Virus record (IMG/VR): IMGVR_UViG_3300045988_014198 | Length of the DNA stretch: 42,402 nt | Reading direction: 5' to 3' (one strand) | Origin: a virus | Shown here: piece by piece, positions 1 through 42,402 of the stretch | How positions within the stretch are numbered: the stretch's first letter is position 1 | How the letters are laid out: every line of letters begins with the position of its first letter | Position numbers and translations under genes: made by a program | Notes under the pieces: generated by a model | The model's input: only the letters and a program-made list of their open reading frames with translations | The model's database searches: none | Told to the model about the DNA's origin: nothing

Positions 1-163
1 CTACGGCGACGGCTCCGGCGACGGCTCCGGCGACGGCTCCGGCGACGGCTACGGCGACGGCTCCGGCTACGGCGACGGCTACGGCTACGGCTACGGCTAC
101 GGCGACGGCTCCGGCGACGGCTCCGGCGACGGCTCCGGCGACGGCTACGGCTCCGGCGACGGC
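1..163 (+). repeat. Coding hexanucleotide/dodecanucleotide microsatellite (GGC-TAC / GGC-GAC / GGC-TCC units), part of repeat protein copy B
   Basis: Only four codons (GGC, TAC, GAC, TCC) are used from nt 2 to 163. The same array type occurs at 39818-40045 and 42324-42402. Confidence 0.9.
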
Positions 164-628
164 ATAAGATCCTTTAACGGCGAACTGGTGTATAACATCG
201 ACGGTGTGCCCACGATCCTCCGCCACGTGCGGGGGAACGTGGCGCACGGCGTGATCCTGAACCGCGACCTGACCACCACGAACTGCTACGTTGCCAAACA
301 GGATAACATCTTTGCCCACGGCGAAACGCTGGCAAAGGCGATGGAGGCTCTTAGGGACAAGCTGTTTGGAGATATGCCGGTGGAGGAGCGCATCGCGGCA
401 TTTTTGAAAGAGACGGAGGACGGCAGGGCATACCCTGCGCAGTATTTTTACGACTGGCATCACCGCCTTACCGGAAGCTGCGACATGGGCCGCCGTCAGT
501 TTGCACGGGACCACGGAATAGACGTGGACAGCGACACCATGACCCTGCGGGAGTTTCTGGCCCTGACCAAGGATGCCTACGGCGGCAGTGTGATCCGGAA
601 GGCGATGGAAAAACTGGAGGCGAAGTAA
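2..628 (+). CDS. G-(Y/D/S) repeat protein, copy B, 3' part (5' end cut by the window edge; its N-terminus is at 42283-42402)
   Basis: Frame 2 is open from nt 2 (YGDGSGDGSG...) to the TAA at 626-628. The C-terminal ~150 aa are about two thirds identical by eye to 39776-40513 (FAHGETL, AMEALR.KLF, WHHRLTGSCDMGR.QFARDHG, AYGG.VIRK). Confidence 0.75.
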   Translation, partial: YGDGSGDGSGDGSGDGYGDGSGYGDGYGYGYGYGDGSGDGSGDGSGDGYGSGDGIRSFNGELVYNIDGVPTILRHVRGNVAHGVILNRDLTTTNCYVAKQDNIFAHGETLAKAMEALRDKLFGDMPVEERIAAFLKETEDGRAYPAQYFYDWHHRLTGSCDMGRRQFARDHGIDVDSDTMTLREFLALTKDAYGGSVIRKAMEKLEAK

Positions 629-1212: not shown

Positions 1213-1492
1213 TACGGTGCGTGCGCGCTTTCTGACGATGCCGGACCCGTTCCCAGGATCTGGAAATGCCGAAAAACAGTACCCCGTGCGCAAGGCGACG
1301 GTGGTGTATGTGCATCCAAAGGGGCGCTTCATCGTGGCGGAGTGCAAGGGCGTCAGGGAAACATTTTTTCCGGAGGATATTATACAGTGCGATTTGCCGG
1401 GGCCTCCTCCGATGGATTATGACTTGGAATACGCGCTGGTTACACTGACGGAAGTGGACAAGAAGATCATGGCCGCATTGGGAATGCTATGA
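1199..1492 (+). CDS. Hypothetical protein, last gene of the early arm
   Basis: 97-aa ORF overlapping the upstream gene by 14 nt and followed by a 270-nt non-coding gap. No family recognised. Confidence 0.5.
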   Translation: MQVGDTVRARFLTMPDPFPGSGNAEKQYPVRKATVVYVHPKGRFIVAECKGVRETFFPEDIIQCDLPGPPPMDYDLEYALVTLTEVDKKIMAALGML

Positions 1493-1506
1493 GGGGAAAT
1501 CAAAAG

Positions 1507-1559
1507 AATAAAAAATTTTCCGTTTGAGGGGTGCGAGGCGGCGAGAGACAATCTATGCT
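1507..1559 (+). promoter_or_regulatory. Conserved late-operon box 1 (AT tract + TTTCCGTTTGAGGGGTGCG, then N16, then TCTATGCT)
   Basis: Near-identical to 5851-5905 (about 28 of 31 aligned positions plus the shared downstream TCTATG). It lies at the start of the gap preceding terS. Confidence 0.4.
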
Positions 1560-1762
1560 GGGTATGCAGGGGCAACCTGCCCGTGCCGATTCATTTCTTT
1601 TCCCCTCTTTTCTACCCTGTGGGGCGGGGCGGCAGCTCCGCCCTGACGGGGAAAACGCACAAAAATTAGCATTAGGGTGTGGCGAAAGCCTGGGAAAGAC
1701 GTGCCAATGACAAAGGCCAGTGGCGGGAGGCCGGTGCGTCAGGCAAGAAAGGGTGTGAGCGT

Positions 1763-2191
1763 ATGCCGGCAGGAGCGCCGAGAAAATGGAAAAGCGTAAA
1801 GGCGATGCAGGCGGCGATTGACGCTTACTTTAAGGCGTGCGAGGGAGAGCCGTTTATCGGGGATGACGGATGCGCGGTGCGGGATAAGTACGGGATACCT
1901 ATCATCATAAACGCAAAGCCTCCGACGATCACGGGGCTGGCGCTGGCATTGGGCTTTACCGGACGGCAAGCGTTGATGGATTATCAGGCAAGGCCGGAAT
2001 TCGCGGACACGGTTACGCGAGCAAAGGCGCGGTGCGAAGAATACGCAGAGGCGCGGCTGTATGACCGTGACGGCGCGAACGGCGCAAAGTTTAGTCTGAG
2101 CTGTAATTTTGGATGGCGCGAGAAAGCGCCGGAAGCAGACCGGCAGGAGATCGGCGTGGTGCTGATGCCGGAGGTAAAGACGGATGTCTGA
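1763..2191 (+). CDS. terS: Terminase small subunit
   Basis: Contains PPTITGLALALGF and AKFSLSCNFGW, typical of Firmicutes-phage small terminase, and lies immediately upstream of and overlapping terL. The start is ambiguous (GTG 1679 or ATG 1763). Confidence 0.75.
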   Translation: MPAGAPRKWKSVKAMQAAIDAYFKACEGEPFIGDDGCAVRDKYGIPIIINAKPPTITGLALALGFTGRQALMDYQARPEFADTVTRAKARCEEYAEARLYDRDGANGAKFSLSCNFGWREKAPEADRQEIGVVLMPEVKTDV

Positions 2192-3626
2192 GATCGTGTG
2201 GAAGCCGCAGGAGCGGCAGGCCGTATTTATGGCAAGGCCGGAATACGAAGCCCTGTATGGCGGGGCGGCGGGCGGCGGCAAGAGCGACGCGCTGGTCATC
2301 GAGGCGCTGCGGCAGGTGCATATCCCGTGGTACAAGGCGCTGATCCTGCGCAAGACGTTCCCACAGCTGCGGGAACTGATCGACAAGACGTTGAATTATT
2401 ACCCCCGTGCGTATCCAAAGGCGCGGTACAACGGCAGCAACCACACATGGCGGTTCCCCTCGGGTGCGCAGATCGTGTTCGGCAGCATGAACCGTCCGCA
2501 GGACAAGATACAGTATCAGGGGCAGGCGTATGACTTTATCGCTTTTGATGAGCTGACGCATTTTACCCAGGAGGAATATGACTACCTGAAATCCCGTAAT
2601 CGACCCAACGGGGCGGGGACACGGGTCTATATGCGCTCCACCGCCAACCCCGGAAACATCGGGCATGGCTGGGTCAAGGAGCGGTTTATCACGGCGGCAC
2701 CGCCGATGCAGCCCATCACGGAGGAGACGGTGTGGTACACGCCGGATGGGAAAAAGCACACGGGACAGCAGCAGCGGATATTCGTACCGTCCTCCGTATT
2801 TGACAACAAGATATTGATGGAAAATGACCCGCTGTATGTGCAGCGGCTGGCCAGTATGCCGGAGGCGGAGCGCAACGCCCTGCTGTACGGAAATTGGGAC
2901 AGCTTTGAGGGGCAGGTGTTTACGGAGTGGCGCAACGACCGGGAACACTATCTGGATCGCAAGCAGACCCACGTCATCGAGCCGTTCCGCATACCGGAGG
3001 ACTGGGTGATCTGGTGCGGGCTGGACTGGGGCTATTCCCGACCATTTTCCGTGGGATGGTACGCGGTGGACAGAAGCAGGCGGATGTACCATATCCGGGA
3101 GTTTTACGGCTGCAACGGTACGCCTAACCGTGGCGTGATGTGGGAACCGACCAAGGTGGCGCAGGAGATACGGCGCATCGAGGCGGACGACCCCAACCTG
3201 CGGGGGCGTGACATCCACCGCGTGGGTGACCCGGCCATCTGGCAAAGCGATGGCACAGAGAGCGTGGGTGCGCTGATGGAACGTGAGCGTGTCTATTTTG
3301 AAAAGGGCGACCATGCACGGATCAACGGCAAGATGCAGATCCACCACCGGCTGGCGTTCGACGCAGACGGCGTACCGATGATGTACGTGTTCGACACCTG
3401 CAAAAACTTTATCCGGACGGTGCCCAACCTGGTCTATGACCAGACAGACGTGGAGGACATCGACACGGACGGCGAGGATCATATCTACGACCAGCTGCGG
3501 TACGTCTGCATGAAAAATCCCATCGGGGCAAGGGACATGGGGCACATCGTGGAGCGGCCCTATTCGCCGCTGGACACGGAGGACGAGTACAGGCCCAGCC
3601 GGTACGCATTTTATCAGACCTATTAA
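2184..3626 (+). CDS. terL: Terminase large subunit
   Basis: 480 aa with Walker A GGAAGGGKSD and Walker B-like YDFIAFDELTHF, plus a C-terminal nuclease-like region with acidic motifs. Position is between terS and portal. Confidence 0.9.
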   Translation: MSEIVWKPQERQAVFMARPEYEALYGGAAGGGKSDALVIEALRQVHIPWYKALILRKTFPQLRELIDKTLNYYPRAYPKARYNGSNHTWRFPSGAQIVFGSMNRPQDKIQYQGQAYDFIAFDELTHFTQEEYDYLKSRNRPNGAGTRVYMRSTANPGNIGHGWVKERFITAAPPMQPITEETVWYTPDGKKHTGQQQRIFVPSSVFDNKILMENDPLYVQRLASMPEAERNALLYGNWDSFEGQVFTEWRNDREHYLDRKQTHVIEPFRIPEDWVIWCGLDWGYSRPFSVGWYAVDRSRRMYHIREFYGCNGTPNRGVMWEPTKVAQEIRRIEADDPNLRGRDIHRVGDPAIWQSDGTESVGALMERERVYFEKGDHARINGKMQIHHRLAFDADGVPMMYVFDTCKNFIRTVPNLVYDQTDVEDIDTDGEDHIYDQLRYVCMKNPIGARDMGHIVERPYSPLDTEDEYRPSRYAFYQTY

Positions 3627-3639
3627 GGGGGAAAAGGAC

Positions 3640-5571
3640 ATGGAAAGATACGGCATCCCCGGCATCGTGCCGGAGGACGGTATGCCGCCGGAGATGGCGG
3701 CGATGCTGCTGGAGCGGACGGACGACACGCCTACCATCACAGAAAAGGACGTGGAGCGCGGGATCGACCTGCTGACGCGGTACAAAAACGGTAAGAACAA
3801 TCTGGAAAGCCGCGTGGTCAACGACGAGCTGTGGTGGGAGCTGCGGCACTGGGAGGGCATCGGGCAGAGCAAGGCCAAGCTGGTGGACAAAAGCGGAAAG
3901 GAAGTCCTCTCCTCCCCTCCCCAGCCAAAGCCCACGTCGGCGTGGCTGTTTAACACCATCCAGAACAAGCACGCAGACGCGATGGACAACTACCCGGAGC
4001 CGGTGGTGCTGCCCCGGGAAAAAAGCGACGAGCAGAGCGCAAAGACGCTGAGCCAGATTTTGCCGGTGGTGCAGGAGTACAACCATTTTGAGCAGGTGTA
4101 CTCGGACAACTGGTGGGAGAAACTGAAGCACGGCACGGCGGTGTACGGTGTGTTCTGGGACAGCCGAAAGGACAACGGTCTGGGCGACATCGAGATCCGG
4201 AACATTGACCTACTGAATCTGTTCTGGGAACCGGGGATCACGGACATCCAGAAGAGCCGCAACCTGTTTATCGTGGATCTGGTGGACAACGACCTGTTGG
4301 ACAGCGAGTACCCCCAGCTCAAGGGCAAGCAGAAGGGCAAGGTCGTGGATGTGAAGGAGTACATCTACGACGACACCGTGGACACCAGCGAGAAGAGCGT
4401 GGTGGTGGACTGGTATTACAAGGTCAAGACGCCCAGCGGCAGGACGGCGCTGCACTACATCAAGTTTGTTGGCTCCACCCTGCTGTACGCCAGTGAGAAC
4501 GATCCGGAATACCGGGAGCGGGGCTTTTACGACCACGGGATGTACCCTGTTGTGCTGGACGTGATGTACCCGGAAAAGGGTACGCCTATCGGCTTTGGGT
4601 ATGTGGCGATCTGCAAAGACCCCCAGCTTTATATCGACAAGCTCAGCGCCAACATTCTGGAAAACGCGATGATGGCGACCAAAAAGCGTTTTTTCGTGTC
4701 GGAAAGTACGGCCATCAACGAGCAGGAGTTTATCGACTGGAACCGACCCCTGGTACACGTCAACGGCGAGATCGGCGACCAGCGGATCAAGGAGATCGTT
4801 ACCCAGCCGCTTTCCGATATCTACGTCACGGTGGCGCAGATGAAAATCGAGGAGATGAAGGACACGGCGGCAAACCGCGATGTGAACTCCGGCGGCACCT
4901 CCAACGTGACGGCGGCAGCGGCGATTGCCGCCTTGCAGGAGGCCGGAAACAAGGCAAGCCGGGATATGATCGCCGCCAGCTACCGCGCCTACACCCAGAT
5001 CAACACGCTGTGCGTGGAGCTGATGCGGCAGTTTTACGACGTAAGCCGCAGCTTCCGCATTACAGGCGAGGGCAACGAGTATCAGTTCGTAGATTTTGAC
5101 AACGCGGGCTTGCAGGATCAGGTGACGGGGCTGGACACAATGGGCAACGAGATGTTCCGTAAGCCGGTGTTTGACCTCAAAATCAAGGCGCAGAAAAAGA
5201 ATCCGTTTTCCCGCATGGAGCAGAACGAGCGGGCCAAGGAGCTGTACTCCCTGGGATTTTTTAATCCGGATAACGCGCAGGCCAGTCTGACGGCGCTGGA
5301 GATGATGGACTTTGAGGGCATCCAGACCGTGCGGGAAAAGGTGATGCAGGGACAGACCCTGTTGAATATGCTGATGCAAATGCAGGCGCAGATCTCCATG
5401 CTGACGGGCGCTATCCTGCCGCAGGAGGGCGCGGGCGATGCACCGGCGCAGACTGGCGGCGGCGCACCTGCGGAGGCCACCAGCCAGCTTGCAAGCGGCA
5501 TTATGCAGGCGCAGACGCCTATGACCGGATACGGGCAGGCATTGGCAAAGCGGAGCACGCCCAGCCTATGA
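3640..5571 (+). CDS. Portal protein
   Basis: 643 aa, directly downstream of terL with an RBS (GGGGGAAAAGG). Size and position are typical of a portal, and the acidic/Gly-rich C-terminal tail fits. Confidence 0.8.
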   Translation: MERYGIPGIVPEDGMPPEMAAMLLERTDDTPTITEKDVERGIDLLTRYKNGKNNLESRVVNDELWWELRHWEGIGQSKAKLVDKSGKEVLSSPPQPKPTSAWLFNTIQNKHADAMDNYPEPVVLPREKSDEQSAKTLSQILPVVQEYNHFEQVYSDNWWEKLKHGTAVYGVFWDSRKDNGLGDIEIRNIDLLNLFWEPGITDIQKSRNLFIVDLVDNDLLDSEYPQLKGKQKGKVVDVKEYIYDDTVDTSEKSVVVDWYYKVKTPSGRTALHYIKFVGSTLLYASENDPEYRERGFYDHGMYPVVLDVMYPEKGTPIGFGYVAICKDPQLYIDKLSANILENAMMATKKRFFVSESTAINEQEFIDWNRPLVHVNGEIGDQRIKEIVTQPLSDIYVTVAQMKIEEMKDTAANRDVNSGGTSNVTAAAAIAALQEAGNKASRDMIAASYRAYTQINTLCVELMRQFYDVSRSFRITGEGNEYQFVDFDNAGLQDQVTGLDTMGNEMFRKPVFDLKIKAQKKNPFSRMEQNERAKELYSLGFFNPDNAQASLTALEMMDFEGIQTVREKVMQGQTLLNMLMQMQAQISMLTGAILPQEGAGDAPAQTGGGAPAEATSQLASGIMQAQTPMTGYGQALAKRSTPSL

Positions 5572-5855
5572 CGGAGGTAACACTGCATCACGGGGACAGC
5601 TGCTCGGTTAGGTGCAAGGGACACGCCACAGGATACCCCGACGTGTGTGCGGCGGTAAGCTGCCTCTTGTACACGGCGGCGGGATGGCTGCACAACACGC
5701 AGGAGGCGGAGCTGGTGCTGGAACGGCTGGACAGCGGGGATGCGTACCTGCGCTGGCACGGCGGGAGGTGGCTGTATGATTTGCTGGAAATCGGCTTTTT
5801 GCAGCTGGAAATGGCAAAGCCGGAGGCGATCTCCGTAAAAATAGAAAAAAAATAA
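5568..5855 (+). CDS. prp: Prp-family (DUF464, ribosomal-processing-type) cysteine protease
   Basis: 95 aa with the motif KGHATGYPDVCAAVS, matching the His/Cys dyad signature GHA....D.VCAAVS of Prp. The start overlaps the portal stop, and the gene lies just upstream of scaffold and capsid. Confidence 0.75.
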   Translation: MTEVTLHHGDSCSVRCKGHATGYPDVCAAVSCLLYTAAGWLHNTQEAELVLERLDSGDAYLRWHGGRWLYDLLEIGFLQLEMAKPEAISVKIEKK

Positions 5856-5905
5856 AAATATTTTTCGTTTTAGGGGTGCGGGAGACCGCGCCCCCTTTCT
5901 ATGAT
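5851..5905 (+). promoter_or_regulatory. Conserved late-operon box 2 (AT tract + TTTTCGTTTTAGGGGTGCG, then N17, then TCTATGAT)
   Basis: Second copy of the 1507-1559 box. It starts at the prp stop codon and precedes the scaffold/capsid genes. Confidence 0.4.
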
Positions 5906-6025
5906 ATAGATACTTCCTCCCTGCCTGCGCGGTGTGACGGCGGTGAAGAACCGCCGCCCGCCGCAAGGGTGGATAGGGGGCGCTGCACGGGAGCGATATG
6001 CCCGCGAATCAAAGGAGGAACAGAT

Positions 6026-6979
6026 ATGTACCTTTACAGGATTTCCCTCTGCCTTTTTGACGGCGAGGGCGGCGATGGGGCGACAGCTGCCACCGCACAG
6101 GGCGAGACACAGGCAAGCTCCGGTACCACCCGCCAGAGCAAATCGGGCGCACTGGCTAACGTCAAGTACGGCAAACAGGCGGAGAGCCAGACGGAAGTAC
6201 AGTCCGACGCCGGGACTGAGGATAAGGTGAAGGACGTGGAGACCACGTCCGACGCGCTGGAGGCCAAGAAAAAGGCTTTCCGGGAGCTGATCAATGGGGA
6301 GTACAAAGATCTGTATACCCAGGAGACACAGCGGATGATCGACCGGCGCTTCAAGGAGGCGCGGGAGACGGAGAAGAGGCTGCAGTCCTACCAGCCGGTG
6401 CTGGATACGCTGATGGAGCGTTACGGCATCGCGGACGGGGACGCAAAGCGTCTGCTGGAGGCCGTGGACAACGACCACGCCTACTGGAGTGAAGCCGCCG
6501 AGGAGGCGGGCATGAGCGAGGAGCAGTACAAGGAGTTCCGCCGTCTGCGGCGGGAGAACGCCGAGCTGCTTCGCGGCCAGCAGATGCATCAGCAGGAGGC
6601 GCAGATCCGGGAACAGAGCGAGAAGTGGTACATGGAGGCGGAGGCCATGAGGGGCAATCCCATGTATCAGAACTTTGACCTTGTGCAGGAGCTGCAAAAC
6701 GACGAGTTTGTGAACCTGCTGAAAGCCGGTACACCGATGGAGCACGCCTACAAGGTGCTGCACTTTGACGAGCTGATGGGCAACGCGGTACAGGCCGCTG
6801 CCGCCAGCACGGAGAAGAAGGTGGCCGACAACGTCCGGGCCAAGGGAAATCGTCCCAGTGAGAACGGCACCAGCTCCAACAGCGCGTTTGTTACAAAGAC
6901 GGATCCCTCAAAGCTGACGAGAGCGGACTTTGAGGAGATCGAGCGGAGAGTAGCAAGAGGCGAACGCATTTCCTTTTGA
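6026..6979 (+). CDS. Scaffolding protein with a predicted cleavable N-terminal propeptide
   Basis: ATG 6026 is preceded by AAAGGAGGAA (6011-6020). The sequence is E/K/Q/R-rich and helical in character, and it sits between prp and the capsid gene. The N-terminus MYLYRISLCLFDGE shares YL-x4-L-x-LFD with the capsid N-terminus. Confidence 0.65.
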   Translation: MYLYRISLCLFDGEGGDGATAATAQGETQASSGTTRQSKSGALANVKYGKQAESQTEVQSDAGTEDKVKDVETTSDALEAKKKAFRELINGEYKDLYTQETQRMIDRRFKEARETEKRLQSYQPVLDTLMERYGIADGDAKRLLEAVDNDHAYWSEAAEEAGMSEEQYKEFRRLRRENAELLRGQQMHQQEAQIREQSEKWYMEAEAMRGNPMYQNFDLVQELQNDEFVNLLKAGTPMEHAYKVLHFDELMGNAVQAAAASTEKKVADNVRAKGNRPSENGTSSNSAFVTKTDPSKLTRADFEEIERRVARGERISF

Positions 6980-7018: not shown

Positions 7019-8302
7019 ATGAACGCAATTTACAACGACCTGTACCTGATGCCGGTGGTGCTGAACCTGTTTGACGCATACACCAATACCACGCTGGATC
7101 CCGGTCTGAGCGACGAGATGAAGGTGTATTACTCTATGCGCCTCATCAACCTCGCCGAGCCGGAGCTGATCCATGACCAGTTTGGCCAGAAGCACCCCAT
7201 CCCCAAGAACAGCGGTAAGACCATCGAGTTCCGGAAGTACGACAGCCTGCCCAAGGCTCTGATGCCTCTGACCGAAGGTGTGACCCCCGCCGGTCAGAAG
7301 ATGAGCATGGGCGTGATCCGCGCCACCATCAAGCAGTACGGCGGTTACATCGAGCTGTCCGACATCCTGGAGCTGACGGCCATCGACAACAACCTGGTGC
7401 AGGCCACCCGCCTGCTGGCATCTCAGGCAGGCCGTACCGCCGACACCATCACCCGCGAGGTGCTGGCTGGCGGCACCAACGTGGTGTACGCCGGTGGCGC
7501 AAAGGATCGCTCTGAGCTGGTGGGCGGCGACAGCACCGCCGAGAACAACAAGTACCTGACGGTGGACGACATCCGCAAGGCTGTACGCGCCCTGAAGGTC
7601 ATGAACGCCCAGAAGATCAACGGCTACTTTGCCGGTATCATCCATCCCGACACCGCCTACGACCTGATGAACGACAAGAAGTGGGTGGATGTGAAGACCT
7701 ACTCCGACCCCGATGGCATCTACGAGGGCGAGATCGGCAAGATCGAGGGTGTGCGCTTTGTGGAGACCACAGAGGCCAAGATTTTCCACGCCGCCCCACT
7801 GAAGATCGAGGACGGCGGCGAGGCAAGCGCCCGCAACCTGACAGTGAAGAGCGCGGCCAGCAAGGTCATTACCATCACCGAAAAGCTCTCCGCCAATCAG
7901 GCCAAGGCGCTGACCGGCAGAGACATTCTGGTGGGCGGCGAGCTGCTGGAGGTGGCGTCCGCTGCTGCCGGTGCTGCCGGTGCTGCCACCATCACCGTGA
8001 AGACCGCGCCTGCCACTACGCCTGCCGCCAGCACCGTGATCTATCCCGGCGAGGGCGGCGCAAACGGACGCGATGTGTACTCTACCCTGATCCTCGGCGC
8101 AGACGCCTACGGCGTGACGGAGCTGGAGGGCGGCGGCCTGCAGCACATCGTCAAGCAGCTGGGTTCCTCCGGTACGGCTGACCCGCTGAACCAGCGTGCC
8201 ACCGCAGGCTGGAAGCTGACCAAGGTGGCGGAGCGTCTGGTGGAGCAGTACATGGTGCGCATCGAATCCGCCTCTACCTTTGAGAGCGGCGCGATGAACT
8301 GA
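7019..8302 (+). CDS. Major capsid protein (N4-gp56-like family pattern)
   Basis: 427 aa. KNSGKTIEFRKY...LTEGVTP.G...IKQYGGYIELSD...QAGRTADTITREVL.GGTNVVYAGG matches the pattern I recall for the N4-gp56 major capsid family. A good RBS (GGAAAGGAG) is present. Confidence 0.85.
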   Translation: MNAIYNDLYLMPVVLNLFDAYTNTTLDPGLSDEMKVYYSMRLINLAEPELIHDQFGQKHPIPKNSGKTIEFRKYDSLPKALMPLTEGVTPAGQKMSMGVIRATIKQYGGYIELSDILELTAIDNNLVQATRLLASQAGRTADTITREVLAGGTNVVYAGGAKDRSELVGGDSTAENNKYLTVDDIRKAVRALKVMNAQKINGYFAGIIHPDTAYDLMNDKKWVDVKTYSDPDGIYEGEIGKIEGVRFVETTEAKIFHAAPLKIEDGGEASARNLTVKSAASKVITITEKLSANQAKALTGRDILVGGELLEVASAAAGAAGAATITVKTAPATTPAASTVIYPGEGGANGRDVYSTLILGADAYGVTELEGGGLQHIVKQLGSSGTADPLNQRATAGWKLTKVAERLVEQYMVRIESASTFESGAMN

Positions 8303-8867: not shown

Positions 8868-9881
8868 ATGACAAGAACGATCCCGCTGAAAATACAGAAT
8901 GAATACATCGCCGGTGACAAGGTGCTGATCGGCGCGGCGGGAAGCCACAATGATGTGGTGCTGCGGATGGAGTTCTCCCCCATGTGGGAGGGGCTGGCGA
9001 AAACGGTACAGTTCTGCGATGCGCTGGGCGAGAGCACCGTGGAGGTGCTGCTGGCTGCACAAATGCTGGAGAGCGATACCACCAACGTCTACCTTGTGCC
9101 GGTGCCGAATGGAGCGAAAAAGTACGCGGGAGATATGGCGCTTGCCATCAAGGGGGCAGAGGCTTCCGGCGGCAAAGAGGCGCGGGCGACTACGGCGGTA
9201 TACGGTACCTTTACGGTGGGCGAAAGCAAGTGGAGCGGCAGCGCAGAAACGGAACAGGATGTGCCGCCTACACAGGCAGCGCAGATGCAGACACAGATCG
9301 AAGTTATCATCGGAACGATAGCGGATGCACGATCCGCCGCCGAAGATGCCGAGAAAAGCAAAAATGCCGCCAAACAAAGTGAAATCAGCGCGGCATATAA
9401 CGCCAATGCCGCAAGAGAAAGCGGAACGAAAGCGGCGGCAAGCGCGGAAAGCGCCAAACAAGATGCCGTTTCAGCAAAAAGTGACGCCGTTTCATCCGGA
9501 CAGTCCGCAGCAAAGGCGGAAAGCGCCGTTGGGAAATACCCGTATTTAGGCGGGGACGGATACTGGATGCTATGGGATCCGGAAAGCGGCAGCTTTTACA
9601 AAAGCAGCATCAGCGGAAAAGGAAAAACCGGCCCGACGGGAGCCACCGGGCAACAGGGCATCCCCGGCAAGGACGGTGCTCCGGGCAAGGACGGTGCTCC
9701 CGGCAAGGACGGTGCGCCCGGTGAAAAGGGCGATACAGGCCCAGCTGGCGCGTTGGTTGAGGCGGATGGCATGTATGGTTTTCGGATCGATGAGACCGGA
9801 CATCTGATCCTGTCTTATACGGGGAACGTACCTCCGAATCTCTCCATTAACAGCGCCGGTCATTTAATACTGACAGTGTAA
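8868..9881 (+). CDS. Collagen-like tail fibre / appendage protein
   Basis: Contains a G-x-x triplet run, GKGKTGPTGATGQQGIPGKDGAPGKDGAPGKDGAPGEKGDTGPAG. It is preceded by an A/S/E/K-rich helical stalk (SAESAKQDAVSAKSDAVSSGQSAAKAES). Confidence 0.7.
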   Translation: MTRTIPLKIQNEYIAGDKVLIGAAGSHNDVVLRMEFSPMWEGLAKTVQFCDALGESTVEVLLAAQMLESDTTNVYLVPVPNGAKKYAGDMALAIKGAEASGGKEARATTAVYGTFTVGESKWSGSAETEQDVPPTQAAQMQTQIEVIIGTIADARSAAEDAEKSKNAAKQSEISAAYNANAARESGTKAAASAESAKQDAVSAKSDAVSSGQSAAKAESAVGKYPYLGGDGYWMLWDPESGSFYKSSISGKGKTGPTGATGQQGIPGKDGAPGKDGAPGKDGAPGEKGDTGPAGALVEADGMYGFRIDETGHLILSYTGNVPPNLSINSAGHLILTV

Positions 9882-9893
9882 GGAGGAACAAAA

Positions 9894-11027
9894 ATGCCTG
9901 AAATTGATTTGGGACTGGTGGTCGGCCCAGCTGGCGCGCAAGGCGCGACAGGCCCAGCAGGTGCAGAAGGAAAACAGGGCGAACGAGGGCTTCCCGGCAA
10001 GGACGGTGCGCCCGGTGCGCAGGGAGACCCCGGTGCTGACGGGAAAAGCGCATACGAAACGGCATCTGCCAGTGGCTATGTCGGCTCAGAGACGCAATTT
10101 GGGCGTGATCTTGCAGACGTACAAAACGCCGTCAAGTACAATGCCCCGCAAACCCTGACCGACGCCCAGAAGGAGCAGGCTCGGTCAAACATCGGCGCAC
10201 CTGCACCGTATACGGCGGGAGATGGTATCGCCATCAGCGGCAGCGTCATCGCTGCCAAAGTGCAGCCCTGCAACCGGAACCTGCTGGACAACTGGTATTT
10301 CGGCAATCCGGTAAATCAGCGGGACGTCAGCGGCACCATCAGCAGCGCAGGGTATTTTCTGGACCGCTGGAAGCTGGTGAGCGGCAGCGTGACGATCAAC
10401 ACGGACGGCATCACGCTGAACGGAACCATGCAGCAGGTGTTGGAGACTGCGCCGGTCGGCACGGTGACGGCATCTGCCCTGACGCAGGCCGGAGTGGGCG
10501 AGGTGGTGCCGACTTACAACAGCGAAACCAAGACGGTCACAGTCACGGCGGAGGGGGAAAAACTCGTGGCCGTCAAACTGGAGTTGGGGACGGAGCAGAC
10601 GCTGGCCCATCAGAACAGCAGCGGCGCGTGGGTGTTGAACGAGATGCCCGACTACGGTGAGGAGCTGACCAAGTGCATGCGCTATCTCCAGATCATCTCC
10701 ACGCCCTACGACACCTCCGGCAACGGCGTGGCCATCGGGTACGCCAACAACACCGTCGACCTGTGGGTACCCATCCCGCTGGCTGTTCCCATGCGCATAT
10801 CGCCTACACCCACCATCCCAACCGGCGGCGTATCGCGTTTCAAGGCGGGCAAAACGTCCAGCGACGTGAAGGACGTCACCAGGGCCACGGGCGGCTGGGC
10901 GATGCAGACCGGCGGGGCTTGCAGCATGCGAAGCCTGATCTTTACGTCCAGCGGCCTGACGGCGGGCGAGACCTACGCCCTGTTCATGCGGCAAGGGGCA
11001 CAGATCGTGCTCAGCGCCGAGTTGTAG
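9894..11027 (+). CDS. Collagen-like tail fibre / putative receptor-binding protein
   Basis: N-terminal G-x-x run (GPAGAQGATGPAGAEGKQGERGLPGKDGAPGAQGDPGADG) followed by a ~300-aa beta-rich C-terminal domain. RBS is AAGGAGGAA. Confidence 0.7.
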   Translation: MPEIDLGLVVGPAGAQGATGPAGAEGKQGERGLPGKDGAPGAQGDPGADGKSAYETASASGYVGSETQFGRDLADVQNAVKYNAPQTLTDAQKEQARSNIGAPAPYTAGDGIAISGSVIAAKVQPCNRNLLDNWYFGNPVNQRDVSGTISSAGYFLDRWKLVSGSVTINTDGITLNGTMQQVLETAPVGTVTASALTQAGVGEVVPTYNSETKTVTVTAEGEKLVAVKLELGTEQTLAHQNSSGAWVLNEMPDYGEELTKCMRYLQIISTPYDTSGNGVAIGYANNTVDLWVPIPLAVPMRISPTPTIPTGGVSRFKAGKTSSDVKDVTRATGGWAMQTGGACSMRSLIFTSSGLTAGETYALFMRQGAQIVLSAEL

Positions 11028-21679: not shown

Positions 21680-21925
21680 ATGAATCAGGAGCACCGTAAA
21701 ATACGGGCTATGCTGCATAGCATGGCACCCAAGAGAGCTATCGCGTGGATCCAATCTTTTGACTTGCCGCAGGAGGAGGCACAGTGTATCGCGGAATGCG
21801 ATGTGCGGGGACGAAGCTGCGTGGAAGCGGCTTTCTCCCTCCACGTTTCGCCGGAGACGGTGAAAAAGTACCGCAGACGGGCATACGGAAAAATAGCGGA
21901 CGGAATGAAATTTTACGGAGAATAA
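21680..21925 (+). CDS. Small HTH regulator, sigma-70 region-4-like
   Basis: 81 aa. The C-terminal SLHVSPETVKKYRRRAYGKI resembles a region-4/LuxR-type HTH. The start is abutted by a 6-bp hairpin (21665-21679). The start codon choice is uncertain. Confidence 0.45.
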   Translation: MNQEHRKIRAMLHSMAPKRAIAWIQSFDLPQEEAQCIAECDVRGRSCVEAAFSLHVSPETVKKYRRRAYGKIADGMKFYGE

Positions 21926-21930
21926 AAGAA

Positions 21931-21965
21931 CTGCCAGCACAAGCTGGCAGTCTCTTTATTTTTTT
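21931..21965. terminator. Bidirectional intrinsic terminator between convergent genes
   Basis: CTGCCAGC-ACAA-GCTGGCAG hairpin flanked by an A-run upstream and a T-run downstream (TCTCTTTATTTTTTT). Confidence 0.7.
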
Positions 21966-22330
21966 GGCTGCTTCTTTAGCCACACAATGTAGCATATAAG
22001 ACCTGAAAGCACAGCGCCAATTATGTATTTTGCCTCGTCCGGCATATACCAACCAAGTTTATCTATCAAAACCGAAATTCCAAGTGTTCCATAGTACAAC
22101 CCATAAGAAATCCAACTCACACAGTCCTCTGAAATATTTGTAATCAGCAATAATATTCCCATAAGAGTTAGAGGGGCGCAAAAAAGCAGGTACATTGCAA
22201 GAGACAAATTTACAAACCTATGAAATCCGCCACCGCATAAAGCGACTACCGCCCCCAAAAACAATGCAACCAATGCAGATATAATTGCATAAAAAAATGC
22301 AGACCCTTTTCTTGATGTAAAAAACTTCAC
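21956..22330 (-). CDS. AT-rich cargo gene: small polytopic membrane protein (possible superinfection exclusion)
   Basis: A GTG at 22330 follows GGGGGA. About four hydrophobic segments (FFYAIISALVALFLGAVVAL, LAMYLLFCAPLTLMGILLLI, YGLYYGTLGISVLI, IIGAVLSGLICYIVW). The longer ORF call (to 22546) would run through a consensus promoter on the other strand. Confidence 0.55.
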   Translation of the reverse strand: MKFFTSRKGSAFFYAIISALVALFLGAVVALCGGGFHRFVNLSLAMYLLFCAPLTLMGILLLITNISEDCVSWISYGLYYGTLGISVLIDKLGWYMPDEAKYIIGAVLSGLICYIVWLKKQPKK

Positions 22331-22380
22331 GCGCAATTCCCCCGCTTTCAGCAAATATATTACACGAGGAATAAATATCC

Positions 22381-22426
22381 TTGACTTTTGGCAGACAAAT
22401 GTTATAATAGCATTATGGCAGACAAA
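22381..22426 (+). promoter_or_regulatory. Near-consensus sigma-70 promoter flanked by an 11-nt direct repeat (putative operator)
   Basis: TTGACT (22381-22386), 16-nt spacer, TATAAT (22403-22408). TGGCAGACAAA occurs at 22389-22399 and 22416-22426, bracketing the -10 element. Confidence 0.6.
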
Positions 22427-22441
22427 AGTGAGGTGATGATA

Positions 22442-22615
22442 ATGTCGCCAAGAACAGGCCGACCTACTGACAATCCCAAACAAGATCGAATTACCGTCAG
22501 GCTGGACAACGAGGCAAATCAAATACTGCGATTGTACTGCGAACAAAAATTAGTAGACAAGGCAGAAGCTATACGCAGAGGGATTAAAAAGTTGGCCGGA
22601 GAAATTGAGAAATGA
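22442..22615 (+). CDS. Ribbon-helix-helix (Arc/CopG-like) repressor
   Basis: 57 aa. The ATG follows GTGAGGTGA. KQDRITVRLDNEANQILRLYCEQKLVDKAEAIRRGIKKL fits the beta-strand plus two-helix RHH pattern. Confidence 0.7.
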   Translation: MSPRTGRPTDNPKQDRITVRLDNEANQILRLYCEQKLVDKAEAIRRGIKKLAGEIEK

Positions 22616-22738
22616 AACAGCCCGTCACCCTCAGAAAGTCACGGACTGTCTCTATACCCCCAGCCGCCGCAGCGGATGGTTAAATCTATTATAACCGGCG
22701 CTGCGGTGAAAATCAACTGAAAAGAGAGGATTTTTACC

Positions 22739-35435: not shown

Positions 35436-35534
35436 AAGGCACACGGGAACTGGATCTAATGCAGGCCATTTCGTATGCAGCACATATGATGTACAAGTTT
35501 GCGGAACAAAAAGAATTGGATAAGGAGATTTGAA

Positions 35535-35927
35535 ATGCTGAACAAGATTTTCATTATGGGACGCCTGACCCGCGATCCGGAGCTGCGCAGGACGCAGAAC
35601 GGCACCGCTGTCACCAGTTTCACGCTGGCGGTAGACCGGGACTTTAAGAACGCGGACGGCACCAAGGACACGGATTTTATTGACGTGGTGGCGTGGCGCA
35701 ACACTGCCGAGTTCGTATCCAAGTATTTCTCCAAGGGGCGCATGGCCGTGGTGGAGGGGCGCTTGCAGCTGCGGGACTGGACGGACAAGGACGGCAACAA
35801 GCGCCGGAACGCCGAGGTGCTGGCGGACAACATCTACTTTGGCGATGCCAAAAAGGACGCGGACAGCGGCGCGGCGCGAACCACCGGCTTTGCCGAGATC
35901 GAGGACGACGGCGACCTGCCGTTCTGA
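35535..35927 (+). CDS. ssb: Single-stranded DNA-binding protein
   Basis: MLNKIFIMGRLTRDPELRRTQNGTAVTSFTLAV.R.........DFIDVVAWRNTAEFVSKYFSKG..V.VEGRLQ.R.W is a canonical OB fold. The acidic tip is DDGDLPF. Confidence 0.9.
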   Translation: MLNKIFIMGRLTRDPELRRTQNGTAVTSFTLAVDRDFKNADGTKDTDFIDVVAWRNTAEFVSKYFSKGRMAVVEGRLQLRDWTDKDGNKRRNAEVLADNIYFGDAKKDADSGAARTTGFAEIEDDGDLPF

Positions 35928-39488: not shown

Positions 39489-39779
39489 ATGAACAACAAT
39501 CAGGACTACATCGTTCGCTGTGACCGCGCAGGCGTGTTTTTCGGCAAGATCAAAGAGAGAAGCGGCTCCGAGGTCACCATGACCGAGGTGCGTAAGCTGT
39601 GGAGCTGGGACGGCGCGTGTGCCGTGGAGCAGCTGGCGCAAGACGGCACAAAAGCACAGGGCAACTGCCACTTTACCGTGACGATCCCGGAAATGACCGT
39701 GCTGGGCGCGATCCAGATCATCCCGTGCACGGATGATGCATCGGTATCGCTTCGCGGCGTAAAGGAGTGGAAGAGATGA
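39489..39779 (+). CDS. Small conserved phage protein, cassette copy A, first gene
   Basis: 96 aa. The ATG follows AATCAGGAGGAA. YIVRCDRAGVFFGKI...VRKLWSWDGACAVEQLAQDGTK is about two thirds identical to 41990-42286. It resembles a widespread small early phage protein family whose name I cannot confirm. Confidence 0.65.
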   Translation: MNNNQDYIVRCDRAGVFFGKIKERSGSEVTMTEVRKLWSWDGACAVEQLAQDGTKAQGNCHFTVTIPEMTVLGAIQIIPCTDDASVSLRGVKEWKR

Positions 39780-40513
39780 CGCTTGATGATAAGATCAAGG
39801 CCTTTCTGACTGTGAGCTACGGCTCCGGCGACGGCGACGGCTACGGCTACGGCTACGGCTACGGCTCCGGCGACGGCTCCGGCGACGGCTCCGGCGACGG
39901 CTCCGGCGACGGCTCCGGCGACGGCGACGGCTACGGCTACGGCTACGGCTACGGCTACGGCTACGGCTACGGCGACGGCTCCGGCGACGGCTCCGGCGAC
40001 GGCTCCGGCTACGGCTCCGGCTACGGCTCCGGCGACGGCTACGGAATTAAGCGATTCAACCGGGAAATGGTCTATCAAATTGACGGGATAAACACGCTGA
40101 TTCGTTCCGTGCGCGGAAACACTGCGCACGGGGCAATCGTGAATAATGATTTGACGACCACGCAGTGTTACATCGTCAAGCAGGGCGACATTTTCGCACA
40201 CGGCGAAACGCTGCGCGAGGCAATGGAAGCACTGCGAGAAAAGCTATTTGAGGATATGCCGGAAGATGAACGCATCGACACGTTCCTGCGTGAAACAGAC
40301 CGAGAGAAAGCATATCCGACGCAGTATTTTTACGAATGGCATCATCGCTTGACCGGATCGTGTGACATGGGACGAAAGCAGTTCGCCCGTGACCACGGTG
40401 TTGATCTTGAGCGCGGCGTGATGACACTTACGGAGTTTTTGGAGTTGACAAAAAGTGCTTACGGTGGCGACGTGATTCGAAAAGTGATTAGTAAGATGCA
40501 GGAGGTCGAGTGA
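39776..40513 (+). CDS. G-(Y/D/S) repeat protein, cassette copy A, second gene
   Basis: The ATG overlaps the upstream TGA. It has a short N-terminal segment, a 76-aa G-(Y/D/S) array and a ~165-aa unassigned C-terminal domain. Paralogous to 42283-42402 plus 2-628. Confidence 0.75.
   Translation: MTLDDKIKAFLTVSYGSGDGDGYGYGYGYGSGDGSGDGSGDGSGDGSGDGDGYGYGYGYGYGYGYGDGSGDGSGDGSGYGSGYGSGDGYGIKRFNREMVYQIDGINTLIRSVRGNTAHGAIVNNDLTTTQCYIVKQGDIFAHGETLREAMEALREKLFEDMPEDERIDTFLRETDREKAYPTQYFYEWHHRLTGSCDMGRKQFARDHGVDLERGVMTLTEFLELTKSAYGGDVIRKVISKMQEVE
39818..40045 (+). repeat. Coding microsatellite array (GGC-TAC/GAC/TCC), 76 codons
   Basis: It contains 5 consecutive GGCTCCGGCGAC units and 7 consecutive GGCTAC units. 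Only four codons are used. Confidence 0.9.
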
Positions 40514-41453: not shown

Positions 41454-41640
41454 CTTAAAACCGTGCCCGTTTTGCGGAGGTGAAGCGGTCATAAGCGTCG
41501 ACCCGGATGCAGTGGAGGACACGCAAGGCCGACGTTGGGCGTATAATGCCGTGTGCATTAGGTGTTGTGCAACGTCAGGACTTACGTATACGCCCCGAAA
41601 AGCGAAAGAAGCATGGAACAGGAGGGCTGACAATGGCTGA
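41446..41640 (+). CDS. lar: Lar-family restriction alleviation protein, copy A
   Basis: 64 aa. LKPCPFCGGEAV......C..CCA.....T...A.EAWNRR is the canonical Lar family pattern. Confidence 0.75.
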   Translation: MTNLKPCPFCGGEAVISVDPDAVEDTQGRRWAYNAVCIRCCATSGLTYTPRKAKEAWNRRADNG

Positions 41641-41944
41641 ATACATTGACAAGGAAGCGTTTAAGGAAAGCGTCGAGGAGCGTTATTGCAAGCCGTGCAA
41701 GGCGGATGGAAAAGACCACAACGGATGCTGGTGTCGTGCCTGTTGGGTTGACGATATGATCGATGAGGTAGAGTGTTTCCAGCCCGCTGATGTTGCTCCG
41801 GTGGTACGCTGCAAGGATTGCAAGCACCGTGACATGGGTGTCTGCCTGAAAATTTACTCGGACGGCAACGTACACTCAGCGGCATGGCAGAAGCGAAAGC
41901 CGGAGGACTGCTGCTCCTACGGCGAACGAAATCAAAACCAGTAA
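41633..41944 (+). CDS. Hypothetical Cys-rich protein
   Basis: 103 aa with 11 Cys (CKPC, CWCRAC, CKDC, CC). It overlaps the lar stop. Confidence 0.45.
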   Translation: MAEYIDKEAFKESVEERYCKPCKADGKDHNGCWCRACWVDDMIDEVECFQPADVAPVVRCKDCKHRDMGVCLKIYSDGNVHSAAWQKRKPEDCCSYGERNQNQ

Positions 41945-42286: not shown

Positions 42287-42402
42287 GCGCGCTGGATGAG
42301 AAAGTCAAAGCATTTTTGTCTGTAAGCTCCGGCTCCGGCTACGGCTCCGGCTACGGCGACGGCTCCGGCGACGGCTCCGGCGACGGCTCCGGCGACGGCT
42401 AC
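42283..42402 (+). CDS. G-(Y/D/S) repeat protein, copy B, 5' part (3'-truncated by the window edge; continues at 2-628)
   Basis: The ATG overlaps the upstream TGA. MSALDEKVKAFLSVSSGSGYGSGYGDGSG... parallels the copy A N-terminus MTLDDKIKAFLTVSYGSGDG. Confidence 0.7.
   Translation, partial: MSALDEKVKAFLSVSSGSGYGSGYGDGSGDGSGDGSGDGY
42324..42402 (+). repeat. Coding microsatellite array (start of the copy B array)
   Basis: Same four-codon vocabulary. The window ends inside it. Confidence 0.9.

Follow-up and report, generated by a model that had tools for sequence, protein, structure and literature searches.

The middle promoters of phage T4 combine a TAnnnT -10 hexamer with no proper -35 and a MotA box centred at -30, and are served by MotA and AsiA through sigma appropriation, a phage protein taking over box recognition from sigma region 4. 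In lambdoid phages, the Q regulator gene and its target promoter PR' are exchanged as one module at the early/late junction, Q being an antiterminator that acts at a promoter-proximal pause. UP elements are not known to be joined, as a rule, by an additional 15-nt G-rich box that is invariant and covers the -35 region. RinA phages carry activator-dependent promoters directly upstream of terS, and these diverge together with the activator (Ferrer et al. 2011, PMC3152322). The activators P2 Ogr, Mu C and P1 Lpa act at a short site repeated before each late transcription unit; Mu C binds from -30 to -55, Ogr acts at inverted repeats centred near -55 and the site of Lpa is at -22 (PMC3152322).

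We analysed a temperate phage genome (hereafter the window, meaning the whole stretch of DNA under analysis, ~42.4 kb, ~57% GC) in which a cassette of ~55 bp precedes the DNA-packaging genes and again the scaffold/capsid genes. As in RinA/ArpU phages, a promoter-like element lies directly upstream of terS and the morphogenesis genes, the point of regulation in RinA phages. The RinA/ArpU arrangement of an activator gene just upstream also recurs in two sister forms of the cassette, types B and C below. Unlike RinA/ArpU phages, the window has no RinA/ArpU homologue beside its conserved box (box A) and two putative promoters instead of one; in the sister cassettes the regulator would be an HTH_3 protein or a small protein of region-4-like type, and the window's own cassette, type A, stands without an adjacent regulator. 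With T4 middle promoters it shares the TAnnnT -10, a weak or missing -35 and an asymmetric conserved box at -30 to -45, but box A is unrelated to the MotA box, the expected timing is late and not middle, and this phage is temperate. The position of box A resembles that bound by Mu C, and its repetition before each late unit recalls P2. It differs from the Ogr and Lpa sites in being asymmetric and placed at -31 to -45, the hosts of P2, Mu and P1 are Gram-negative, and we found no homologous regulator here. Types B and C are exchanged as regulator-cassette modules, much as lambdoid Q is, but we saw no sign of antitermination, and type A lacks a linked gene. Finally, the weak core is preceded at about -46 to -60 by an A-tract and then a T-tract, much as in a UP-assisted sigma-70 promoter, from which the cassette differs by adding an invariant 15-nt G-rich box over the -35. 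With a different box sequence, two putative promoters and no homologous regulator found, the cassette appears to belong to none of the named families compared. The motif sequence is new, and a literature search for it returned unrelated primer sequences only; its kind, most likely a phage late promoter, is well known, and the cassette leaves the current understanding of phage gene regulation unchallenged.

The window encodes an integrase, a repressor and two Ant genes, in keeping with a temperate lifestyle. Its relatives are uncultured human-gut phages and prophages in metagenome-assembled genomes of Clostridia / Oscillospiraceae, and the closest named phages are the Page-like podoviruses of Bacillus megaterium, with capsid identity of ~39%. 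The genes that frame the two cassettes are as follows.

ATG at 1763, + strand: terS (Pfam GP3_package)
2184-3626, + strand: terL
3640-5571, + strand: portal, P22-like
5568-5855, + strand: Prp-type cysteine protease
6026-6979, + strand: scaffold protein
7019-8302, + strand: major capsid protein

Beyond the major capsid gene lie genes for tail fibres, holin, endolysin, an internal virion protein and a 1951-aa protein. The last has no match in Pfam, PHROG or PDB sequences, which leaves its identification as a virion RNA polymerase unsupported. A moron promoter in the window, TTGACT-17-TATAAT at 22381-22410, is near consensus, so the host appears to use the standard consensus, from which box A departs at the -35. 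The window contains no tRNA genes.

Anatomy of the repeated cassette

Both copies of the repeat lie where the preliminary description placed them, copy 1 (AATAAAAAATTTTCCGTTTGAGGGGTGCGAGG) at 1507-1538 and copy 2 (AATAAAAATATTTTTCGTTTTAGGGGTGCGGGA) at 5851-5883, and the gaps that hold them are, as it stated, the two largest within the + strand block from terS to the tail genes. Its count of two mismatches and one indel holds from AATAAA to GCG; over the full 32-33 nt there are four mismatches and one indel, the final three bases being different (AGG vs GGA). A repeat search grouped the two copies into one 34-nt family, 82% identical without gaps. Aligned locally, the two gaps gave a best score of 48, against a mean of 17.8 (sd 2.4, max 30) for dinucleotide-preserving shuffles, none of which reached 48 (0/1000). 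Within the window, the 15-nt core CGTTTNAGGGGTGCG occurs exactly at 1521-1535 and 5866-5880 only.

We also trained a position-weight matrix on 17 distinct sites from relatives and scanned the window on both strands. The two copies scored 42.9 and 48.5, and scores elsewhere did not exceed 5.9 on either strand, so the window holds no third copy, even a degenerate one. Pattern scans of the window likewise returned none, in agreement with the earlier inspection by eye. The cassette parts are listed below, with positions relative to the predicted start.

1502-1520, + strand: copy 1 A-tract then T-tract, AAAAGAATAAAAAATTTTC, about -64 to -46, UP-element-like
1521-1535, + strand: copy 1 box core, CGTTTGAGGGGTGCG, about -45 to -31
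1536-1553, + strand: copy 1 spacer, 18 nt; among relatives its sequence is free and its length fixed at 18-19 nt
1554-1559, + strand: copy 1 -10-like hexamer TATGCT; predicted start at ~1564-1566
5840-5865, + strand: copy 2 A-tract then T-tract, overlapping the Prp stop codon TAA at 5853-5855
5866-5880, + strand: copy 2 box core, CGTTTTAGGGGTGCG
5900-5905, + strand: copy 2 -10-like hexamer TATGAT, 19 nt past the box; predicted start at ~5910-5912

The preliminary description took TCTATG as the second shared element. That string is present at 1552-1557, 16 nt past GCG, and at 5898-5903, 17 nt past GCG, but its TC varies in relatives (GGTATGCT, ATATATGAT, CTACGAT); what relatives keep is the hexamer TA[T/C]G[A/C]T, found in the window at 1554-1559 and 5900-5905. 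Both hexamers have the T1, A2 and T6 of a sigma-A-type -10, and that of copy 1 is followed by a GGG discriminator. The absence of a sigma-70-like -35 is roughly true: a weak -35-like GTGCGA at 1531-1536, overlapping the copy 1 box core and 17 nt upstream of its hexamer, matches TTGACA at 3/6 positions, and copy 2 has TGCGGG or GTGCGG in this place. Apart from GTGCGA, the box A part reads CGTTTNAGG. A consensus scan for promoters with a near-TTGACA -35 calls neither copy, yet it calls the canonical sites of a distant relative (L086, below).

Three other assignments of these letters were discarded. A TTGAGG-17-GACAAT pairing exists in some copy 1 variants only and is absent from copy 2 and from the CGGGAGATATACATATAGG variant. 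TATGCA at 1564-1569, a second -10-like hexamer of copy 1 that might have marked a sigma-dependent pause, lacks conservation (L004 has GACGCA there). CGTTTGA was likened to the SPO1 late -35 CGTTAGA, but its spacing to any GATATT-like element is wrong.

Conservation and exchange among relatives

We scanned IMG/VR for exact occurrences of TTTYCGTTTNAGGGGTGCG. The scan yielded 63 sites in 50 stretches, all within the window's phage family and none outside it, and every site (63/63) precedes a terS-type leader or scaffold/capsid genes. The boxes thus occupy equivalent positions in relatives, as the promoter reading of the preliminary description anticipates. For closer comparison we assembled distinct 150-mers, 30 covering the terS position and 17 the scaffold position. 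The box core shows six variants among the 30, each a single substitution, and two among the 17. The spacers behave differently. The terS position has eight, in two unrelated families (...GACAAT[C/A] vs ...GATATACATATAGG), the first comprising AGGCGGCGAGAGACAATC and its relatives GGGCGGAGAAAGACAATA and TAGCGGCAAAAGACAATC and the second CGGGAGATATACATATAGG, and the scaffold position has a third unrelated sequence, GGAGACCGCGCCCCCTTTC. Spacer length is nevertheless 18 or 19 nt throughout the 47 type A sequences. The hexamer is TATGCT (26/30) or TATGAT (4/30) at the terS position and TATGAT (16/17) or TACGAT (1/17) at the scaffold position; TAnnnT is kept in all 47 and in every other cassette type.

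If transcription starts 7 nt past the hexamer, conservation covers about -60 to -31 and -12 to -7, with a gap of fixed length and free sequence between them. A position of about -60 is the upstream extent of the RNA polymerase footprint. A free spacer of fixed length between conserved parts points to a bipartite DNA site within that footprint and not to an RNA structure. Upstream of the conserved block the sequences are mosaic: at least five unrelated flanks join it at the A-tract of copy 1 among relatives.

Other cassettes can take the place of type A at the same two positions.

Type B (terL 84-91% identical): TTCCACTT(AA/TT)AAGTGGAA, 19-20 nt, then TATCAT/TATGAT/TACCGT/TACTGT
Type C: GTTGCAcaacgaaaTGCAAC, 17 nt, then TAACGT
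Type D (terL ~73% identical): CCCGTGGTGAGA, 17 nt, then TACCGT or TACGCT, with TGn before the hexamer
Type E: AAGGGGTGATAAC..., ending in TATTGT

Anchored on the conserved downstream leader, the hexamers of types A-E share one register. Types D and E carry GTGAGA and GTGATA where type A has GTGCGA, 17-18 nt upstream of the hexamer, and several non-A cassettes have a TGn extended -10. We classified 82 genomes by their cassettes at the terS and scaffold positions, in that order.

A/A: 22 genomes
B/B: 31 genomes
D/D: 19 genomes
B/A: 2 genomes
C/A: 1 genome
E/A: 1 genome
cut by a contig end or unclassified: 6 genomes

The same type thus stands at both positions in 72 of the 76 genomes covered at both, as expected if one factor reads both promoters. 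Cassette types are also exchanged between near-identical phages (L001, L002, L008, L019), types B and C having been swapped into phages that are otherwise 98-99% identical (L001, L002, L019).

A more distant relative, L086 (terL 61% identical), has near-consensus sigma-70-type promoters at these places. The terS ORF is preceded at a distance of 29 nt by TTTACA-17-TACAAT, the scaffold ORF at 6 nt by TTTACA-17-TATAAT, and these are the two best sigma-70-type matches in its whole 6.5-kb locus. TTGACA-17-TATACT (L095, L097) and TTGACA-17-TATTAT (L085) lie in the region 800-840 nt upstream of terL, where terS would be expected.

With at least five cassette types, two of them having an obvious linked DNA-binding partner, swapped between near-identical genomes, the family offers a natural swap experiment. 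The swaps could be used for dissecting late-gene control, or the cassettes taken as orthogonal promoter/regulator parts for Clostridia. The comparison also supplies a candidate promoter model, with box, spacing and -10, for abundant uncultured temperate gut phages of Clostridia (~170 IMG/VR contigs).

Promoter reading and candidate readers of the box

We favour the reading in which each copy is a late promoter, used twice, and give it a probability of about 0.6. It draws on the conserved box, the free spacer of fixed length, the invariant T1/A2/T6, the register shared across types and the near-consensus promoters of L086. The twice-used promoter proposed in the preliminary description is thus the best fit to the comparative data, while its TCTATG unit and absent -35 call for revision and the gene at 21680 finds no support as the regulator. 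The copy 1 promoter would drive terS, terL, portal and Prp; that of copy 2 would drive the scaffold, capsid and tail genes, the embedded holin and endolysin and the rest of the block to 21925. Packaging genes and scaffold/capsid genes are probably separate late transcription units. Each promoter would comprise a sigma-A-type -10, TA[T/C]G[A/C]T, a weak -35-like GTGCGA 17-18 nt upstream and, where a UP element would lie (about -46 to -60), an A-tract with a T-tract. The non-palindromic 15-nt box at about -31 to -45 would dock a trans-acting factor, which would recruit or license host RNA polymerase late in infection. Because the box is conserved far more tightly than a -35 needs, it is probably such a docking site, and activator dependence is plausible. 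We infer a transcription start ~7 nt past the hexamer, a protein as reader of the box and, as a result, late timing.

With GTGCGA 17 nt from the hexamer and GTGAGA or GTGATA in types D and E, a weak sigma-A -35 assisted by an UP-like tract is a live alternative. Host sigma-A would then use the -10, the weak GTGCGA and the A/T tract at -46 to -60 as an UP element, with no dedicated activator. Late timing would come from repressor release, replication-dependent copy number or read-through control, and the box would be conserved solely via recombinational homogenisation between the two copies. The -35-like hexamers stand 17-18 nt before the -10 in types A, D and E, and the GGG discriminator of copy 1 and the lack of any box-A-specific regulator gene in the searches below also agree with this account. 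We find it doubtful on three grounds. The phage is temperate and would pay a price for leaving a promoter unregulated ahead of its terminase and capsid genes. A box that is near-invariant over 47 distinct sequences, beside a spacer replaced wholesale, exceeds what a 3/6 -35 needs. And the sister types B and C have dedicated DNA-binding partners.

These partners are closely linked. The type B cassette lies directly past a ~78-aa HTH_3 gene (40.9 bits) in 40/40 distinct contexts, and type C directly past a small Sigma70_r4 + HTH_23 gene in 5/5. Both types contain a palindrome centred at about -40, the classic site for an activator or repressor overlapping the -35. For type A, an adjacent helix-turn-helix gene was found in 0/38 distinct terS-position contexts. 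Type A at the scaffold position coexists with type A, B, C or E at terS, so any reader of box A would be encoded elsewhere in the phage or by the host.

Searches for such a reader in the window covered the neighbourhood of the box and further ORFs. Pfam and PHROG gave no matches, RinA/ArpU included, for the ORFs at 188-628, 629-1003 and 1199-1492, and the ORF at 919-1212 is Lar-like. Across ~60 window ORFs, Pfam and PHROG returned no RinA, ArpU, Q, full-length sigma, MotA or AsiA, and a PDB sequence search with the ORFs 188-628 (146 aa), 1199-1492 (97 aa), 41507-41944 and 21680-21925 (81 aa) returned nothing. No gene other than the 97-aa ORF at 1199-1492 is retained immediately before the putative late promoter by both clades, A and B; its 147 homologues all belong to the window's phage family, and it has no Pfam domain and an AlphaFold model with a pLDDT of 42. 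We also took 44 loci, with the SSB gene (35499-35927) as anchor, and tested the + strand ORF clusters within the ~8-10 kb upstream for association with cassette type; no cluster was present in all 24 box-A loci while absent from box-B/box-C loci. The same test recovered the B-HTH_3 and C-region-4 linkages, so it had power.

Could a small protein stand in for sigma at the box? A small phage or host protein may take over the role of sigma-A region 4 at a -35-less box A, as a Firmicutes counterpart of T4 appropriation; we regard this as speculative and rather unlikely. If it were true, the family would run on interchangeable reader-cassette pairs (HTH_3 with B, a region-4-like protein with C, another reader with A), and concerted evolution would keep the cassettes at the two promoters of each genome identical.

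The preliminary description pointed to one gene as the candidate regulator.

21680-21925, + strand: 81-aa protein, sigma-70 region 4-like, a putative member of the system

Acting by sigma appropriation, as a split sigma or as a GerE-like activator, this protein might read the box. Its match to Sigma70_r4_2 (23.7 bits) is below the 25.7 cutoff, it matches phrog_3512 at E=2.5e-5, and it has a weak GerE helix-turn-helix match too. In its favour, the asymmetric box A covers the -35 region, to which region 4 binds, and in relatives a different region-4-like gene is welded to the type C cassette. We nevertheless judge the protein unlikely as box reader. Its recognition helix does not covary with box type: it reads SPETVKKYRRRA in the window, SVDGVKRRRRTA in other box-A phages and SVDVVKRCRRRA in box-B phages, so that the window differs more from other box-A phages than these do from box-B phages. 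A/A and B/B phages alike carry the gene, at 75-85% identity. It is last, after the giant tail protein or a CHAP-domain gene, in the window and in all relatives examined, and has no A/T-rich promoter-like gap of its own; in the window a strong terminator follows it. As the last gene of the late operon, it would be transcribed from the operon that needs its activation. Finally, it has no detectable similarity to the type-C-linked protein.

Hairpins, possible termination and predicted leaders

The following elements surround the two hexamers.

1560-1762, + strand: predicted terS-operon leader, with a small hairpin at 1566-1580, a pyrimidine tract at 1590-1616 and a GC stem-loop at 1621-1643
5873-5894, + strand: copy 2 hairpin, 9-bp GC, GGGGTGCGG-GAGA-CCGCGCCCC, overlapping box and spacer
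5906-6025, + strand: predicted scaffold/capsid-operon leader, ending before the scaffold ATG at 6026

In copy 2, AGGGGTGCG is the 5' arm of the 9-bp GC hairpin. A terminator scan shows the hairpin to be followed by CTTTCT / CTTTCTAT, a weak U-run, and the predicted fold of the 81-nt segment 5845-5925, hairpin included, has an energy of -23.0 kcal/mol. In copy 1, and in each of its four spacer variants, an arm complementary to GGGGTGCG is missing and the box is part of no hairpin, so the hairpin is not what both copies share. In L086, a real-looking terminator between portal and scaffold opens with the same 12 nt, AGGGGTGCGGGG, and type B has a strong hairpin and T-run after the hexamer at both positions.

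One could read these structures as punctuation, box, hairpin and T-rich run together forming an intrinsic terminator or insulator in which the hexamer is incidental. The copy 2 hairpin with its CTTTCTAT, the type B hairpins and the L086 terminator would all fit. That reading is very unlikely, given that copy 1 and the spacer variants lack the hairpin arm, that the hairpin stands past the hexamer in type B and before it in copy 2, and that the part common to both copies is upstream of any hairpin; an invariant TAnnnT at fixed spacing is also unexplained by a terminator. A terminating role may, within the promoter reading, be an addition in some cassettes. Copy 2 may double as the terminator of the terS-to-Prp unit while starting the scaffold/capsid unit. 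In type B, a start at the hexamer would drop most of the hairpin's 5' arm, and read-through from upstream would keep the hairpin and terminate, a placement that would give compact insulation of the late genes from upstream transcription.

A non-regulatory role, as a module-boundary linker acting as a recombination joint or as an RNA element in a read-through transcript, is highly improbable: the box lies exactly where upstream sequences turn mosaic and cassettes are exchanged between near-identical phages, but promoters are where mosaic joints are expected in any case, replacing whole spacers while a DNA-style bipartite spacing is kept would not be tolerated in an RNA element, and distant relatives have canonical promoters in the same places. 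Rfam 15 gave no match at gathering thresholds for the whole window and none at E<=1 for 1400-6100, and we rejected a known RNA element on these empty searches.

The predicted leaders are themselves conserved. In the terS leader, the segment 1564-1649 is conserved across the 99%, 90% and 84% terL clades, and in relatives a tRNA gene lies between cassette and terS, directly past the stem-loop, an observation that also favours the promoter reading. In the scaffold leader, base pairing is predicted between CTTCCTCC at 5913-5920 and the ribosome-binding site, GGAGG at 6014-6018. The 3' half of this leader is conserved between box-A and box-B clades, with changes falling in loops and paired changes in stems.

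The gene upstream of the probable late promoter and its neighbours

Lying directly upstream of the late promoter, ORF 1199-1492 (97 aa) is the sole gene kept at that place in lineages carrying cassette types A, B, C and E, the alternative promoter-like sequences of related clades (the window is type A). The type-D clade is without a homologue. All 147 homologues fall within this phage family, and the protein comes in two forms, a short one of ~63 aa and a long one of ~98 aa. It has no known domain, and its structure prediction gave a pLDDT of 42. Because the gene sits just upstream of the late promoter, we consider its product a candidate late regulator.

Two kinds of additional sequence occur near this gene in related phages.

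Inserts and cassette modules in related loci
L005 1342-2190, - strand: two-gene insert
L003 4069-4920, - strand: two-gene insert
L030 4879-5157 with 5110-5220: cassette module
L002 4595-4864 with about 4870-4960: cassette module

The two-gene insert lies between the box and the homologue of ORF 1199-1492 in some box-A relatives, and one of its genes encodes an antitoxin-like helix-turn-helix protein. In these insert-bearing relatives, the hairpin ACCACGCATTGCGTGGT adjoins the A-tract. Types B and C are modules that combine a regulator gene with its probable operator and promoter. Type B couples an HTH_3 gene to the palindrome TTCCACTTAAAAGTGGAA, and type C couples a region-4-like gene to GTTGCA-N8-TGCAAC. 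These modules sit between terS and the homologue of ORF 1199-1492, and have been exchanged into phages that are elsewhere 98-99% identical to the window.

Leaders of terS and the scaffold gene

The terS leader (1566-1762) contains several distinct elements. In many relatives, the stretch separating terS from the cassette and its GC stem-loop also holds a tRNA gene (Rfam RF00005, 49-51 bits).

Elements of the terS leader
1590-1616: pyrimidine tract
1621-1643: very stable stem-loop, GGGGCGGGGC-GGCA-GCTCCGCCC
L001 2571-2640, L010 5143-5212 and L054 5377-5456: tRNA gene (RF00005), at the place corresponding to just after window position 1643

In relatives, the loop of the stem-loop at 1621-1643 is UUCG. 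Further conserved hairpins in this leader include GGCGAAAGCC and GGCCAGTGGCGGGAGGCC. ARAGORN called only the L054 copy of the tRNA gene, as an 83-nt tRNA-Gly with anticodon ccc, and missed the rest; the window itself lacks tRNA genes.

The scaffold leader (5906-6025), which we also looked at in the corresponding place of L027-L058, is structured and high in GC. In the predicted fold, its 5' CTTCCTCC (5913-5920) is base-paired to GGAGG (6014-6018), the ribosome-binding site. Paired changes between clades occur in its stems, such as GGCGGTG...CCGCC against GGCGGCAACGAGCCGCC. The sequence CACGGGAGCGAYATGCCCGCG is kept across box types. The structure could exert translational control over the scaffold and capsid genes. 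In L086, a distant relative without the Prp protease gene, portal and scaffold are separated by 444 non-coding nt (4002-4446) holding several hairpins and an intrinsic terminator at 4272-4305. The start of this terminator, AGGGGTGCGGGG, is the same 12 nt found in the window's copy-2 hairpin (5873-5894).

Coding repeats and a moron

Repeats with a 12-nt period encode four-residue units rich in G, D, Y and S, and lie inside ORF 39767-40513 and again across both window ends. This distribution suggests that the genome is circularly permuted, with its arbitrary start falling within a paralogous gene. Collagen-like Gly-X-Y repeats are common to two neighbouring tail-fibre genes (8868-9881 and 9894-11027).

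Repeats and moron features in the window
3-314, 39768-40184 and 42290-42400: 12-nt-period repeats
9644-10035: Gly-X-Y repeats, 18-nt and 9-nt periods
22381-22410: near-consensus promoter TTGACT-17-TATAAT, ahead of the small moron ORF
22443-22615: small moron ORF from ATG 22443 (22388-22615 in the ORF listing, from an upstream TTG)

The low-GC moron (21956-22700, about 45%) follows the late-operon terminator (21931-21965). Its small ORF looks like a ribbon-helix-helix protein, and ORF 21956-22546 on the - strand likely encodes a membrane protein.
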